Shown one piece after another: positions 1,577 to 7,882 of a stretch of 64,000 nucleotides of DNA. The position numbers and the translations under genes were made by a program. The stretch's first letter is position 1, and every line of letters begins with the position of its first letter. The notes beneath the pieces are model-generated. The model was not told the DNA's origin and searched no databases. It saw only the letters and a list, made by a program, of their open reading frames with translations. The DNA lies in contig CAYTAU010000003.1 of NCBI GenBank assembly GCA_964435855.1, forward strand, positions 20,096 through 84,095, in the 5' to 3' direction. The stretch comes from an uncultured Bacteroidales bacterium (GTDB lineage: Bacteria; Bacteroidota; Bacteroidia; Bacteroidales; CAYTAU01).

Positions 1577-1627
1577 GCCACTAATGCACGAATATATATT
1601 TTACTTTTTTATTAGTGCATTCGTGGC
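1577..1627. repeat. gene-less inverted repeat of the GxxExxY-flanking family
   Basis: GCCACTAATGCACGAAT (1577-1593) ... ATTAGTGCATTCGTGGC (1611-1627); arms nearly identical to 5254-5270 and 5727-5743. Confidence 0.9.
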
Positions 1628-3031: not shown

Positions 3032-5209
3032 CTAATCTTCTAACTGGTCTTCTAATTCAATCATAACGCTTGTTATTTCAACCATATCACCAATAGCAAC
3101 ATTTACTTTTTTAACAATTGCATTTTTTGTTGTTGTAATACTGTTTTCCATTTTCATAGCTTCAACAACAATTAATGTATCTCCTTTAGATACTTTGTCG
3201 CCTTCTTTTACATTTAACTTGAAAACCTTACCCGGCATTGGAGATTTTATATTATTGTCGCTACTTGATGATGCTCCGTCTGAACTTTCTGCTATATCAT
3301 CAATCAAAATGTCGTTTCGACTCATATTAAATTTGTCGCTGTTAATTGTAATAGCAAATTCTTTATCTTCTTTTACAATTTTTGCAAAGTATACTGTTTT
3401 ATCTATTGTAATATCAACTTCATCGTTATCAATATAGACTAAGTTTGCGACAAAAGTATTTCCTGCTATTATAAACTCATATTCCTTATCTTGTATTTTT
3501 CTAAACGCAACAGGAATTACTTCGTCTTTATAATTAATATCAACATTAATGAGGTTTCTCCAATACCCAATAGAGTTCCATACATTATGTTCTTTTGGCA
3601 AAAATGGTATTTCTCCAATTCTGCCTGTGTTTAATCCGTGTAATAAATACGCGGTTATTGCAACAGGATATTCAACTTTATCTTTTTTATACGATGTTCT
3701 GTTTGGTTTTTGACTTGTATTCATAGCTATATTTGTTTTTGATGTTTGAGGTGCTCTGAGTTTTTCCAGTTCGGCTTCAAAACTTTCTTTTGCCACACCC
3801 GACTTATAATCTCTATATTGTGTTTCGTGAATTGCAAATTCAAATAATTCTTCGTTGTCTTCTCCAAGTTCCCAATTGTTTTCTTTCATTTCTTTTCTGT
3901 ACTTATCAAGTACATTGGGATAAATTTCCTGAGGAACTCCTGTATAGAATTTTTTGCCTTGCTCTTTTGCCAGTTTTTCGAAAACAGGATCTATTTTCCC
4001 TGGTAGATTTCCTGCTCTTCCAAGCAACATATCCCATGTGTTAGGATCAATAGACATAAATCTTTCTTTACCTTGTGCAAGGTTCATTACATTTACTAAA
4101 GCAGTGTTTTTTACATACTGGCTAAATGGTGTTACCAATGGAGGATATCCCATAAGGGGCCATATATATGTTACTTCGTCGAATAGTTTTACAAGAAGTT
4201 CGTCTTCCGATAATTCAGGTTTTCCTGCTGCCGACATTGACATATTAATTGCTTCATGGACTCCTTTAAGGTCTGCCATCAAACTACCCATCATTCCGCC
4301 AGGTAATCCAGAATCTACCATTAATGATGATAAATATCTGTTTTTTGGATTAATGAAGAAGCCAAGAAAATCATCAATAAATTCCTGTGTTAATGCTCTT
4401 GCTTCCATATATGCCTTCATATTGATATCGGGAACATCAAAACCATCATCTAAAAGCATGTGGCGAATTGTAATAACGTCTGGATGAACCATTCCCCACG
4501 AAAGCGGTTCCATTGCAACATCAAGATAATCTGCTCCTGCTCTTGCTGCTTCAAGCATCGAAGCAACAGCAAAGCCGGGACCTGAATGACCATGATATTG
4601 AACAATTATATGTGGGTATTTATTTTTTATTGCTTTAATAAGTTTGCCGAGTGTTGCAGGTCTGCCAATTCCTGCCATATCTTTAAGACAAATCTCATCT
4701 GTTCCGTACTCAACCATTTTATCTACAACACCCATAAAATAATCAACAGTGTGTACTTTGGAATATGTAATACTTAATGTTCCCTGTGAGATTAATCCGG
4801 CCTCTTTAGCGTATTTTATTGATAATTCAAGATTTCTATGGTCGTTTAATCCGCAAAACGAACGTGCAATATCAACTCCTTGTGCTTTTTTTACTTTATA
4901 CATTAATTTACGAACATCGGCAGGAACAGGAAACATTCTAATACCGTTCAATGCACGTTCAAGCATGTGAGTTTGAATACCTGCTTCGTTAAATGGCTTT
5001 GTCCATTCACGAACTGCTTTATTTGGATTTTCACCATAAAGCAAATTAACTTGTTCAAAAGCACCACCATTTGTTTCAATTCTATCAAAACAGCCCATAT
5101 CAATAATAACAGGAGCTATTTTTTTTAATTGGTCAACCCTTGGGACATACTTTCCTGAAGATTGCCACATATCACGATAAACTAAACTAAATTTTATTTG
5201 TTTCTTCAT
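3032..5209 (-). CDS. pyruvate/oxaloacetate carboxyltransferase domain fused to a linker/BT-like domain and a biotin carboxyl carrier domain
   Basis: RDMWQS, ICLKDMAG, HGH, LPGGM, GYPPLVTPFSQ (OadA/PycB/5S-type TIM barrel); C-terminal SPMPGKV...EAMKMEN biotinylation motif. Confidence 0.88.
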   Translation of the reverse strand: MKKQIKFSLVYRDMWQSSGKYVPRVDQLKKIAPVIIDMGCFDRIETNGGAFEQVNLLYGENPNKAVREWTKPFNEAGIQTHMLERALNGIRMFPVPADVRKLMYKVKKAQGVDIARSFCGLNDHRNLELSIKYAKEAGLISQGTLSITYSKVHTVDYFMGVVDKMVEYGTDEICLKDMAGIGRPATLGKLIKAIKNKYPHIIVQYHGHSGPGFAVASMLEAARAGADYLDVAMEPLSWGMVHPDVITIRHMLLDDGFDVPDINMKAYMEARALTQEFIDDFLGFFINPKNRYLSSLMVDSGLPGGMMGSLMADLKGVHEAINMSMSAAGKPELSEDELLVKLFDEVTYIWPLMGYPPLVTPFSQYVKNTALVNVMNLAQGKERFMSIDPNTWDMLLGRAGNLPGKIDPVFEKLAKEQGKKFYTGVPQEIYPNVLDKYRKEMKENNWELGEDNEELFEFAIHETQYRDYKSGVAKESFEAELEKLRAPQTSKTNIAMNTSQKPNRTSYKKDKVEYPVAITAYLLHGLNTGRIGEIPFLPKEHNVWNSIGYWRNLINVDINYKDEVIPVAFRKIQDKEYEFIIAGNTFVANLVYIDNDEVDITIDKTVYFAKIVKEDKEFAITINSDKFNMSRNDILIDDIAESSDGASSSSDNNIKSPMPGKVFKLNVKEGDKVSKGDTLIVVEAMKMENSITTTKNAIVKKVNVAIGDMVEITSVMIELEDQLED

Positions 5210-5250
5210 ATACTTATATTTTCATGCTATTGTCGCTAATGAGTTATTTT

Positions 5251-5746
5251 TTTGCCACGAATGCACGAATTTTTATTAAATAATTTATTCTGTACATTAG
5301 TGTAATTCGTAATTTAAAATACTATTCTTTTATAATTTAATTTTAATTCTCCAAAATTAACAAGTAAGGATAATTTATTATCAGAAACTTTTAAATAATT
5401 TATACATTGTGCTAAATGTTCATCTGCAAAACCTTTTGAAAGTGCCTTAACCTCAAGAATAATCTTGTTATAAATAACAAAGTCAGCAAAAAAATTATGA
5501 GGTAGAATGAAATCTTTATAATTTACTTCGTATTTCACCTCTCTTTCATATTTAACACCTGCTTTTTTAAATTCATATTCTAATGCGTCTTTATAAACAA
5601 TTTCTAAAAATCCTGCACCCAAATTGTTATGTACTTCCATACATATACCTATGACTTTATATGCTTCTTCTTTATATATTAAATCAGTCAAATAAATTTT
5701 CTTTTTTCTATACTATTAATGTTTTCATTCGTGCATTCGTGGCAAA
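5251..5746. mobile_element. putative mobile cassette: GxxExxY nuclease gene between perfect 20-bp terminal inverted repeats
   Basis: TTTGCCACGAATGCACGAAT (5251-5270) and ATTCGTGCATTCGTGGCAAA (5727-5746) are exact reverse complements. Confidence 0.65.
5314..5691 (-). CDS. GxxExxY family protein (PD-(D/E)XK nuclease-like), copy 1
   Basis: GFLEIVY motif, ADFV...LEVKA catalytic-like motif, LLVNFG; TTG start. Confidence 0.92.
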   Translation of the reverse strand: MTDLIYKEEAYKVIGICMEVHNNLGAGFLEIVYKDALEYEFKKAGVKYEREVKYEVNYKDFILPHNFFADFVIYNKIILEVKALSKGFADEHLAQCINYLKVSDNKLSLLVNFGELKLNYKRIVF

Positions 5747-5777
5747 TAATATTTTACTCTTATTTCAATTCTCAAAT

Positions 5778-6566
5778 TTATTTTACCCAATTAGGTTTTC
5801 TTTTTTCTAAAAACGATGCCATTCCTTCTTGTCCCTCTTTTGAAGCTCTTAATTCAGCTATCATTTTAGCCGTATAATCAATACTTTCGTCAAAAGTAAG
5901 TGTATTTGATATATCATAAATTAAAGTTTTACATGCAGCCATGGCATCAGGCCCGCTAGTCATTAATACTCTAATTATTGAATTTACATGTTCGTCAAGT
6001 TGTTCTGTTGGTAATGATTTGTTAACTAAGTTATATAATTCGGCTTCTTTACCTAAAAATCTTCTACCAGTAAGCATTAAATCTCTAGCACCATATTCTC
6101 CAATTCTTTTTGCAACATAAGGTGAAATTGTTGCAGGAGCAATACCAAGTTTAACTTCGCTAAATGCGAATTTTGTTTCATCATCACAATACACAAAATC
6201 ACATGCTGCAAGAATACCATTTGCACCACCAATAGCAGCACCATGAACAACTGCAATAGTAGGTTTTTTGCATGTGTAAATTACATTAAAACATTTAGCC
6301 AAACGTAAGCTATCCTGATAATTTTCTTCATAACCAAATTCTGCAATACCTTTCATGTAATTAAGGTCTGCACCTGCACAAAACGATTTTCCTCTACCTT
6401 TAATAATTGCAATTCTAACATCATCCATATTGTTAATCTCCTCGAAACAATCAATTATTTCGGAAATCATAATATCATTCATTGCATTATGCTTATCAGG
6501 ACGATTGAACCAAACCGTTCCGATATTATCTTTTAATTCAAATTCTATGTTTGTATAATTTTTCAT
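5778..6566 (-). CDS. enoyl-CoA hydratase, methylglutaconyl-CoA hydratase-like (paralog A)
   Basis: NRPDKHNA, FCAGADL, GAAIGGANG, SEVKLGIAPA, EGQEGMASFLEKRKPNW; context with MCC beta subunit. Confidence 0.88.
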   Translation of the reverse strand: MKNYTNIEFELKDNIGTVWFNRPDKHNAMNDIMISEIIDCFEEINNMDDVRIAIIKGRGKSFCAGADLNYMKGIAEFGYEENYQDSLRLAKCFNVIYTCKKPTIAVVHGAAIGGANGILAACDFVYCDDETKFAFSEVKLGIAPATISPYVAKRIGEYGARDLMLTGRRFLGKEAELYNLVNKSLPTEQLDEHVNSIIRVLMTSGPDAMAACKTLIYDISNTLTFDESIDYTAKMIAELRASKEGQEGMASFLEKRKPNWVK

Positions 6567-6586
6567 CTTATATACTTTATATTTTT

Positions 6587-7084
6587 GCCGCGAATGCGCT
6601 AATGTTTTTTTATTCGCGAATTAGTGGCTTATTATTTTTCTTGCAGTATCAAATACAATTCTTTTATAATTCAATTTTAATTCCCCAAAATTAACAAGTA
6701 AGGATAATTTATTACCAGAAACTTTTAAATAATTTATACATTGTGCTAAATGTTCATCTGCAAAACCTTTTGAAAGTGCCTTAACTTCAAGAATAATCTT
6801 GTCATAAATAACAAAGTCAGCAAAAAAATGATGAGGTAGAATGAAATCTTTATAACTTACTCCGTATTTTACCTCTCTTTCATATTTAACACCTGTTTTT
6901 TTAAATTCATATTCCAATGCGTCTTTATACACTATTTCTAGAAATCCAGCTCCTAAATTGTTATGTACGTCCATACATTTACCTATTACATTATATGCTT
7001 CTTCTTTATATATTAAATCAGTCATTTAGGTTCTCTTTTATTTCATTCCATGAATCGCTAATATTTTATTCGCGAATTAGCGGC
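6587..7084. mobile_element. second GxxExxY cassette flanked on both sides by imperfect hairpins of the same repeat family
   Basis: GCCGCGAATGCGCTAAT (6587-6603)/ATTCGCGAATTAGTGGC (6612-6628) on one side; CCATGAATCGCTAAT (7048-7062)/ATTCGCGAATTAGCGGC (7068-7084) on the other. Confidence 0.6.
6621..7025 (-). CDS. GxxExxY family protein (PD-(D/E)XK nuclease-like), copy 2
   Basis: 9 differences in 125 aa from copy 1; 9-aa C-terminal extension whose stop codon lies in the repeat arm. Confidence 0.92.
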   Translation of the reverse strand: MTDLIYKEEAYNVIGKCMDVHNNLGAGFLEIVYKDALEYEFKKTGVKYEREVKYGVSYKDFILPHHFFADFVIYDKIILEVKALSKGFADEHLAQCINYLKVSGNKLSLLVNFGELKLNYKRIVFDTARKIISH

Positions 7085-7093
7085 TATTTTTCA

Positions 7094-7882
7094 TTATTTA
7101 ACCCAGTTTGGTTTTCTTTTGTCAAGAAACGACGCCATTCCTTCTTGTCCCTCTTTTGATGCTCTCAGATCAGCGATCATTCTAGCAGAATAATCTATTG
7201 AACTGTCAAACGTTTTAATATTTGAAATATCAAATATCAAGTTTTTGCACGATGACATAGCATCAGGTCCGCTTGTCATAAGATTTCTAATTATATTACT
7301 GACAAATTCTTCAAGTTCATTTTCGGGTAATGATTTATTAACAAGTTTATATTTTTCTGCTTCATCACCTTTAATTCTTCTTCCGGAAAGCATTAGATCT
7401 TTTGTTCCAAATTCTCCAACTCGCTTTAAAATATATGGTGAAATACAAGCAGGAACAATCCCTATCTTTACTTCACTAAGCGAAAAAGTTGTGTTCTGCT
7501 CTGCAAAAGCATAATCACATGTTGCAATAAAACCATTTGCACCTCCAATTGCAGCTCCATGTACAACAGCTATTGTTGGTTTGTTACAAGTATATATAGT
7601 TTTAAAACATTCTGAAACAATAAGACTTTCGTTATAATTTTCCTGATAACTGTATTTTGCTACATCACGCATCCAGTTTAGGTCTGCACCTGCGCTAAAT
7701 GATTTTCCTCTTCCTCTTATAACAACAACACGAACATCATTCATCTTGTTGATTTCTGAATAACATTCAATAATTTCTTTAAGCATTACTGCATTAAAGG
7801 CATTATGAATCTCTGGTCGGTTTAACCAAATTATCCCGATATTATCGGAAAGTTCGAATTGTATGGTTTTGTAATTATTCAT
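7094..7882 (-). CDS. enoyl-CoA hydratase, methylglutaconyl-CoA hydratase-like (paralog B)
   Basis: NRPEIHNAFN, FSAGADLNWM, SEVKIGIVPACISPY; same length as paralog A. Confidence 0.88.
   Translation of the reverse strand: MNNYKTIQFELSDNIGIIWLNRPEIHNAFNAVMLKEIIECYSEINKMNDVRVVVIRGRGKSFSAGADLNWMRDVAKYSYQENYNESLIVSECFKTIYTCNKPTIAVVHGAAIGGANGFIATCDYAFAEQNTTFSLSEVKIGIVPACISPYILKRVGEFGTKDLMLSGRRIKGDEAEKYKLVNKSLPENELEEFVSNIIRNLMTSGPDAMSSCKNLIFDISNIKTFDSSIDYSARMIADLRASKEGQEGMASFLDKRKPNWVK

Follow-up and report, generated by a model that had tools for sequence, protein, structure and literature searches.

The DNA analysed here (hereafter the window) is a stretch of 64,000 nucleotides (nt) from an uncultured Bacteroidales bacterium, whose genome is called G000 below. 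It carries two copies of a gene of the GxxExxY family, each framed by inverted arrays of the 7-nt unit CRCKAAT, and our analysis centres on the second of these cassettes, at positions 6587-7084 (cassette 2; cassette 1 is its neighbour). Gene and arms together have the appearance of a form of selfish DNA not described before, a nuclease gene moving along with hairpin repeats of its own. We give about an even chance to the explanation that nuclease and hairpin repeat family are partners in a selfish cassette. By analogy, such a cassette would resemble either the repetitive extragenic palindromic (REP) sequences with their REP-associated tyrosine transposases (RAYT) or the intervening sequences (IVS) of ribosomal RNA (rRNA). 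The observations comprise an insertion polymorphism relative to a congener, homology between the two copies over the open reading frame (ORF) only, purifying selection with intact catalytic residues, a dispersed repeat family with a characteristic placement, and a unit class that tracks the protein tree.

Structure of the two cassettes

The inverted CRCKAAT arms of cassette 2 terminate exactly at 6587 and 7084, and its frame is built of one local imperfect palindrome on each side of the gene, with the following features (3′ and 5′ refer to the gene):

6621-7025, minus strand: GxxExxY copy 2, 134 amino acids (aa), ATG start; TIGR04256 E 1.5e-36, PF13366 E 4.7e-34
6587-6603, plus strand: 3′ outer arm, GCCGCGAATGCGCTAAT; GC clamp 20 nt from the ATG of hydratase 1 (6564-6566)
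6612-6628, plus strand: 3′ inner arm, ATTCGCGAATTAGTGGC; holds the stop codon of copy 2 (6621-6623)
7052-7062, plus strand: 5′ inner arm, partial, GAATCGCTAAT; GAAT followed by CGCTAAT
7068-7084, plus strand: 5′ outer arm, ATTCGCGAATTAGCGGC; the arm found most often in the genome (8 exact copies) is its reverse complement, GCCGCTAATTCGCGAAT

The outer arms pair at 14 of 17 positions. Copy 2 has GAT at the position of the copy 1 stop codon and continues for nine codons to a TAA (6621-6623), which lies within the unit ATTAGTG (GCCACTAA, sense strand); the last nine aa form an unconserved read-through tail, of which residues 129-133 are modelled with a predicted local distance difference test score (pLDDT) below 50. 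An earlier reading of the window from its letters alone (the sequence-only reading) had reported nine differences between the copies over 125 residues, a 9-aa extension and a stop inside the repeat arm, all of which were confirmed. Note that positions 6567-6586 form the leader between the 3′ hairpin and hydratase 1, with a spacing typical of the repeat family.

Cassette 1 lies on the other side of hydratase 1 and consists of:

5314-5691, minus strand: GxxExxY copy 1, 125 aa, TTG start; TIGR04256 E 1.4e-37
5254-5270, plus strand: outer arm, GCCACGAATGCACGAAT; with flanking TTT, a perfect 20-nt inverted repeat of 5727-5746
5296-5311, plus strand: degenerate inner arm (ATTAGTG TA ATTCGTA), directly next to the copy 1 stop codon
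5727-5743, plus strand: arm on the 5′ side of the gene, ATTCGTGCATTCGTGGC; pairs with 5254-5270 in the predicted mRNA fold, enclosing the ORF

When the transcript of cassette 1 is folded, a perfect long-range stem of 20 bp encloses the ORF in the minimum free energy (MFE) structure as well as in the centroid (z -3.4). The two cassettes are therefore framed differently, one by a gene-spanning perfect repeat and the other by local imperfect palindromes. Their units also differ in type, although less strictly than had been proposed: the CGC variant predominates among the seven units of cassette 2 (six of them) but is not pure, since the unit holding the stop codon is CACTAAT, while cassette 1 has five CAC units, a stray CGCTAAT (5234-5240) and a degenerate TACGAAT. 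The start codons are TTG (5689-5691) in copy 1 and ATG (7023-7025) in copy 2, and the sequences upstream of them are unrelated.

Insertion at two operon junctions

The host genes next to cassette 2 are two paralogs of enoyl-CoA hydratase:

5778-6566, minus strand: hydratase paralog 1, between the two cassettes; 96% identical to its congener ortholog
7094-7882, minus strand: hydratase paralog 2, on the upstream side of cassette 2; identity to paralog 1, 66%

The sole same-genus genome compared (G001, 97% complete) has no GxxExxY match and keeps the gene order of G000, namely carboxyltransferase (97% identity), hydratase 2 (85%), hydratase 1 (96%) and a PycB-like gene (94%), with empty junctions of 2 nt and 53 nt between the genes. 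Empty junctions were likewise found in metagenome contigs from three runs of other studies (X2, X3 and X4), which may stem from the same species as G001 and were used for the joints only: in X2 and X3, position 5203 is joined to 5778 with 56 nt between, and in all three runs the start of hydratase 1 is joined to a hydratase end with 10 nt between. At the level of sequence, these comparisons show that the cassettes were inserted at two consecutive stop/start junctions of an acyl-CoA carboxylase/enoyl-CoA hydratase operon.

The number of synonymous substitutions per site (dS) between the two GxxExxY copies is 0.205. Among the four neighbouring genes, three have a dS of 0.27-0.33 between the orthologs of G000 and G001, and the copies would therefore have arisen in this lineage after the split from the congener. 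In the protein tree they are sisters (support 98), next to L002 and L003, which carry the same unit as the copies. The simplest history would be one arrival after the split from G001, followed by the appearance of a second copy 1.3 kb away.

Two other origins of the pair bear on this history. A simple tandem duplication of a gene-plus-hydratase unit finds a resemblance in the order gene-hydratase-gene-hydratase. However, the hydratases are only 72% identical in DNA (66% in protein), with a proportion of synonymous differences (pS) of 0.58, against 94% and 0.18 for the GxxExxY copies. The flanks between gene and hydratase are unrelated, and the congener has both paralogs without GxxExxY or either cassette. 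These comparisons, among them the alignment check that the sequence-only reading had proposed, exclude such a duplication, and we regard its probability as practically nil. An assembly artefact, with one real copy placed twice, would be favoured by the draft state of the genome (310 contigs) and by a 70-nt stretch identical in both copies, at which the Logan contigs of run X1 break. Yet the copies differ at 23 sites, and their own flanks are joined to different host genes in separate Logan contigs, so that only the pairing of a 5′ half with a 3′ half could be chimeric. These contigs cover 5000-5411, 5422-5686, 5661-6351, 6327-6745, 6756-7020 and 6995-7400 without any difference, break solely inside the identical stretch and bridge each unique junction. 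The misassembly check is thereby answered, with the scope that X1 may be the source sample and that independence is that of the assembler only; the chance of an artefact appears very slim.

Besides the cassettes, the host genes themselves display uneven divergence. Hydratase 2 (7094-7882) differs from its G001 ortholog by a dS of 0.85 (85% aa identity), well above the 0.27-0.33 of its neighbours, and this divergence is patchy, with 63-77% identity in codon blocks 1-60, 361-420 and 541-720. Conversion between the paralogs was considered as its source and rejected, the diverged patches being no closer to hydratase 1. In the PycB-like gene beside cassette 1, the first ~150 nt (5067-5209) and the block 4567-4866 are also more diverged (about 80%).

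A dispersed repeat family

The arms of cassette 2 belong to a family dispersed in the genome. The census of arms that had been suggested as a check returned 36 arms of the form CRCKAAT N0-2 CRCKAAT in the 4.7-Mb genome against one for the reversed control, and it is because of this count, and not of local fold energies, that the arms of cassette 2 stand above chance. A GC clamp is present at the start of 31 of the 36 arms. Crude ORF calling marks 86% of the genome as coding, yet 34 of the arms fall outside the ORFs so called. Among the 25 loci, 22 are located between co-directional genes, one between divergent genes and two at contig ends. At 12 of the 22 loci, the next ATG follows 16-24 nt after the last unit, with a mode of 17 nt (six loci exactly); the distance from the preceding stop codon to the element is free (-6 to 444). 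Downstream of the elements runs an A-rich leader, often ending AAACA(T/C/A)ATG.

Two expectations about how the arms are made up did not hold. The sequence-only reading supposed that the repeat variant is consistent within a cassette, but left and right arms agree in A/G state in 14 of 20 unit pairs (10 arm pairs; permutation mean 10.6, P 0.17). The concordance is found instead within the arm, where tandem units share their A/G state in 31 of the 36 arms, or in 17 of 22 when each arm sequence is counted once. It also supposed that the arms are copied from each other, but the G/T position of the outer units is mismatched in 9 of 10 arm pairs, and the arms are therefore not simple copies. Indeed, the repeat elements are oriented pseudo-palindromes with a fixed mismatch.

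One gene-less (solo) element lies within the window:

1579-1625, no strand assigned: solo hairpin of the CRCKAAT family (GCCACTAATGCACGAAT ... ATTAGTGCATTCGTGGC), flanked on both sides by genes of the same direction; not present at the corresponding site in G001

Folded as single-stranded DNA (ssDNA), this hairpin reaches -12.3 kcal/mol (z -6.4). Seven solo loci were compared with G001 (on C2, at window positions 1579-1625, on C28, C29 and C30, and at two sites on C12). The first five are cleanly absent from G001, with flanks 88-98% identical, and no target-site duplication was seen in the five alignments of filled against empty sites. The two C12 sites have different occupants in G001. At the junction C12:24533-24601, G001 carries a 116-aa ORF of the four-helix-bundle (S23p) type (TIGR02436 E 3e-32; L056:1121-1471, minus strand), framed by its own inverted units of the AATTAAGA type. 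At C12:23439-23473, G001 (L056) carries ~150 nt of another palindromic element, with arms resembling cgtcattgcgagc... and ...gctcgcaatgacg. From these site comparisons, solo elements appear to be gained and lost between congeners, which makes them mobile or unstable.

CRCKAAT is one of several such families in this genome, in which dispersed double units number 37 for CRCKAAT, 24 for CRCAGAT, 8 for CRCAAAG and 2 for CRCAAAT (controls 0-1); two unit families that frame relatives' genes only have no double unit here. Within the window, a CRCAGAT double unit is located at ~11894 (C3:31989) and a CRCAAAG one at ~28223 (C3:48318), and both types frame other GxxExxY genes of this genome. Searches of Rfam at E up to 1 gave one chance-level match to a small nucleolar RNA (snoRNA), no family coinciding with the arms and no rRNA match in 4900-7400; a consensus scan gave promoter-like sites only as often as in shuffles and nothing resembling a terminator at the arms.

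Association of gene and repeats across related genomes

Across 20 related genomes (30 loci), nearly every GxxExxY gene lies within or between inverted arrays of a short unit. The unit varies by locus (CACGAAT, CACAGAT, CACAAAG, CACATAG, CGCAAGG, CGCGGAT, CAGAATT, ATGATT-type and others), and in this genome the four further GxxExxY genes are framed by CACAAAT, CGCAAAG, CACAGAT and CGCAGAT units. Mapped on the protein tree, unit class requires 7 changes, where shuffles need 11.8 on average and at least 9 (none of 1000 as good), in a test of 31 sequences and 19 classifiable loci from related genomes in which the unit classes were defined after the data had been seen. In addition, the sharing of 7-mers between flanks increases with protein identity (Mantel r 0.24; 0 of 2000), and the unit sequence is kept among proteins merely 35-60% identical. 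The suggestion that the gene belongs with the repeats is supported by the relatives.

A GxxExxY match is present in 20 of 31 genomes, a patchy distribution, with six copies in the genome under study. Where a GxxExxY gene is flanked by CRCKAAT arms, the genome holds 36 (G000), 20 (G002), 18 (G011), 52 (G012), 26 (G014) or 10 (G026) of them. As a REPIN-like example, the lone intact GxxExxY copy of G012 is located between two elements that carry the invariant 17-nt arms of dispersed solo elements of ~145 bp. In the alignment of nine solo and two gene-flanking elements (A3, L066-L076), the arms (GCCACGAATGCACGAAT) are invariant while the interiors vary and two orientations occur, and the gene-flanking elements have only the arms in common.

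Other genomes display further states of the family. G002 contains 18 GxxExxY matches, many of them fragments at contig ends, and its L009 copy is broken by short palindromes (ccgatagctatcgg) and a stop codon, so that the family there looks like a decaying high-copy one. In G024, a tandem run of 1 kb (C128:11258-12287) consists of ~25 alternating CACGAAT-type arms, and the sole GxxExxY match of that genome is weak, partial (residues 17-69) and on a different contig.

Homology between the two copies

The two proteins are identical at 116 of 125 residues without gaps, apart from the nine additional aa of copy 2, and 23 of 375 coding bases differ (94% identity, pS 0.18). The homology spans the second base of the start codon to codon 125, that is, the ORF only. 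Measured against shuffles, global alignment reaches z 39.5 for the coding sequence but only z 0.7 for the intergenic flank on the 5′ side and z 1.5 for that on the 3′ side, in agreement with the earlier remark that the sequence between gene and repeats is not common to the copies. The inner arms stand at unequal distances from the gene in the two cassettes, with unrelated spacers. At a dS of 0.205, flanks duplicated together with the gene would be expected to be still ~80% alike.

For this pair, the idea that gene and repeats move or are homogenised as a unit therefore fails, since homology is confined to the ORF. It stands for a sister pair of similar divergence in the relative G011, which is shared from arm to arm, the homology ending ~8 nt beyond the arms; cassettes can therefore move as a unit. 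The alignments suggest that the pair in the window either did not move as a unit or had its frames rebuilt later.

The GxxExxY protein

PF13366 (PDDEXK_3) and TIGR04256 are the sole family matches of both copies, with 119.7 and 117.7 bits (curated cut-off 22) and 128.6 and 125.2 bits (curated cut-off 35), respectively. Ten positions (L24, G25, G27, E30, Y33, D70, E80, K82, Y99 and F113) are invariant among 27 aligned relatives from this and 19 related genomes, and since these positions are kept, both copies retain the GxxExxY motif and the D...ExK nuclease residues. The AlphaFold2 model built on this alignment (pLDDT 92; predicted template modelling (TM) score, pTM, 0.85) has a restriction-endonuclease-like alpha/beta fold. 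Its top Foldseek matches in the PDB are all PD-(D/E)XK nucleases, with TM up to 0.57, including Cas4 (4ic1; E 7e-4, TM 0.54), the alkaline exonuclease LHK-Exo and Hjc (2wiw); this search yielded the generic fold only and no specific functional relative. A sequence search of the PDB gave T7 endonuclease I alone, over the D..ExK segment and without significance (E 0.7-0.9), and neither copy matched a PADLOC defence model. With a ratio of nonsynonymous to synonymous substitution (dN/dS) of 0.16 between them (dN 0.034), the copies are, as judged from their substitutions, under purifying selection with catalytic residues intact. PF13366/TIGR04256 is a large orphan family and a very common 'hypothetical' gene; a survey of the PD-(D/E)XK superfamily enters PF13366 as 'Unknown' (PMC3424549).

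Proposed mechanism and rival explanations

We propose that the GxxExxY nuclease recognises and cuts its own unit arrays, as hairpin, cruciform or duplex, after which host repair would spread or keep the repeat elements. That the protein binds or cuts the repeats, and the way in which the copies spread, we infer by analogy. The downstream end of the repeat elements lies ~15-22 nt before the next start codon, between co-directional genes, and the A-rich leader after each hairpin would keep the next gene translatable, so that insertions would cost little. In the pair of the window, either the ORF alone would have been copied or converted or the frames would have been rebuilt afterwards, without simple duplication of the whole cassette.

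Several observations weigh against this selfish partnership of nuclease and repeats. The claim that hairpins flank copy 2 holds in that inverted arms stand on both sides of it, but their predicted folds are weak: as ssDNA, the 3′-side hairpin reaches -8.1 kcal/mol (z -1.7, 12 of 200 shuffles equal or better) and the 5′-side one -4.9 kcal/mol (z -0.9, 34 of 200), and the fold of the whole cassette 2 mRNA is at shuffle level (z +0.43). Sense and antisense RNAs of 19 hairpin stretches fold about equally (among the fuller ones, antisense better in 7 and sense in 4), and no strand can therefore be assigned to the structure. ORF-only homology poorly suits a cassette moving as a unit, and the comparison of filled with empty junctions disclosed no target-site duplication, excision scar or circle junction. 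The unit classes of the tree test were, as said, drawn up post hoc, and the compared genomes are related to each other. Moreover, the link between gene presence and arm count is loose: no CRCKAAT-flanked GxxExxY gene was found in G010 (37 arms), G024 (27, mostly in one tandem array) or G018 (11), and G023 has a 73% identical gene yet only that gene's own three arms.

The main rival is a role of the stems at the RNA level, as in an IVS-like element. The arms would pair in the operon transcript and RNase III would cut the stem, freeing the ORF mRNA and separating the host cistrons; the DNA would move by ordinary recombination, and the nuclease would have another job. The perfect stem around the ORF of cassette 1, present in MFE and centroid folds, is what such an element would look like, and in seven relatives' loci (L004, L022, L023, L010, L018, L027 and L030) the gene also lies in the loop of a single inverted repeat. 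According to PMC4990558, the 23S IVS of Coxiella is 428 nt long, holds an ORF within a terminal stem of 28 bp and is excised by RNase III, and the congener carries an S23p-type ORF with its own inverted units exactly where this genome has a solo hairpin. Cassette 2 fits less well, as its outer arms pair at 14 of 17 positions and its transcript folds no better than shuffles. The systematic G/T mismatch of the outer units would be a poor substrate for RNase III, and if the role were structural only, the periodic tandem units within arms and the conservation of units at 35-60% protein identity would be left unexplained. We therefore hold this explanation to be possible but rather unlikely. Alternatively, the hairpins may be host regulatory or mRNA-stabilising operon elements, placed at a fixed distance before start codons, with GxxExxY as an accessory gene of the usual sort, for repair or defence, that is merely apt to occur between them. 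The placement of 22 of 25 loci between co-directional genes, the sharp 17-nt mode to the next ATG and the many solo elements without a nuclease gene nearby would suit host elements well. In contrast, all five cleanly comparable solo elements are missing in the congener, where the junctions are otherwise conserved, unit types differ among genomes and track the GxxExxY tree, and neither an Rfam family nor a terminator-like site at the arms nor a PADLOC match for either copy was found; this explanation seems improbable to us.

An extension of the selfish cassette can also be put forward, although we consider it speculative and rather improbable. The GxxExxY and four-helix-bundle (S23p-type) genes would be interchangeable cargos of hairpin-framed cassettes that target operon stop/start junctions. 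The frame (unit arrays and A-rich leader) and the ORF would be separate modules, the ORF being swappable at its own start and stop. The nuclease would read its own 7-nt units, including the G/T mismatch, and so drive the spread of gene-bearing and gene-less hairpins. A swap of ORFs between frames would explain why the sister copies share only the ORF.

Relation to known systems

The cassettes offer a clean and small test case, with two intact sister genes, a congener in which both sites are empty, a matching family of ~25 repeat loci that also differ between the two genomes and, as a second type of cargo, the four-helix-bundle ORF at a like site. If the nuclease acts on its own unit arrays, a lifestyle like that of REP/RAYT would have been reached a second time, by an unrelated route. 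A function would then be at hand for a very widespread 'hypothetical' gene, and the origin of ORF-bearing rRNA intervening sequences might be further explained. The fixed gap of 15-22 nt between hairpin and start codon also bears on the translation of operon genes in organisms with A-rich leaders. Our literature search on GxxExxY, PF13366, TIGR04256, TIGR02436, PF05635 and the 23S rRNA-intervening sequence protein found no paper linking these genes to flanking repeats.

In fold, the protein resembles T7 endonuclease I, archaeal Hjc and Cas4, with which it shares the E...D...ExK catalytic constellation; it has no significant sequence relationship to them, and the GxxExxY helix motif is peculiar to its own family. 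Free-standing homing endonuclease genes are nuclease genes present or absent at a conserved site, and miniature inverted-repeat transposable elements (MITEs) are short non-autonomous relatives with the same terminal inverted repeats, both of which recall the situation described here. The cassettes differ in having no intron, intein, recognisable transposase or target-site duplication, and in occupying many insertion sites. Indeed, the target-site duplication that marks classical insertion sequences and MITEs (DDE) was seen neither at the five solo sites nor at the two cassette junctions.

The closest layout is that of REP/REPIN-RAYT systems. In these (PMC3116915 and PMC3337134), a gene is likewise framed by a short palindromic repeat in inverted orientation, which also occurs gene-free throughout intergenic regions, different gene lineages pair with different repeats, and no target-site duplication is seen. 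The flanking of a gene by a dispersed inverted repeat, by which these systems are recognised, was found here on both sides of both copies and over 25 loci. However, the protein here is a 125-aa PD-(D/E)XK fold, as opposed to the Y1 HUH (IS200/IS605-like) transposase of RAYT, and the arms are tandem arrays of a 7-nt unit with a fixed internal mismatch. GxxExxY is multi-copy (six here, two with CRCKAAT) and patchy (20 of 31 genomes), whereas RAYT is described as single-copy and vertically inherited. The ORF-bearing 23S IVS (helix 45 of Coxiella burnetii, S23p ORF; PMC4990558) is also a small ORF within terminal inverted repeats and a selfish insert of a few hundred nt in a transcribed unit. Further likenesses are the predicted 20-bp stem around the ORF of cassette 1 and the S23p-type ORF in a like frame at a congener junction. 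In contrast with that element, the cassettes are located at junctions of protein-coding genes and not in an rRNA helix, their ORF has a nuclease fold, and cassette 2 has local imperfect hairpins in place of one long stem. Altogether, the cassette resembles REP/REPIN-RAYT in its layout and the ORF-bearing rRNA IVS in its build, and is a member of neither.

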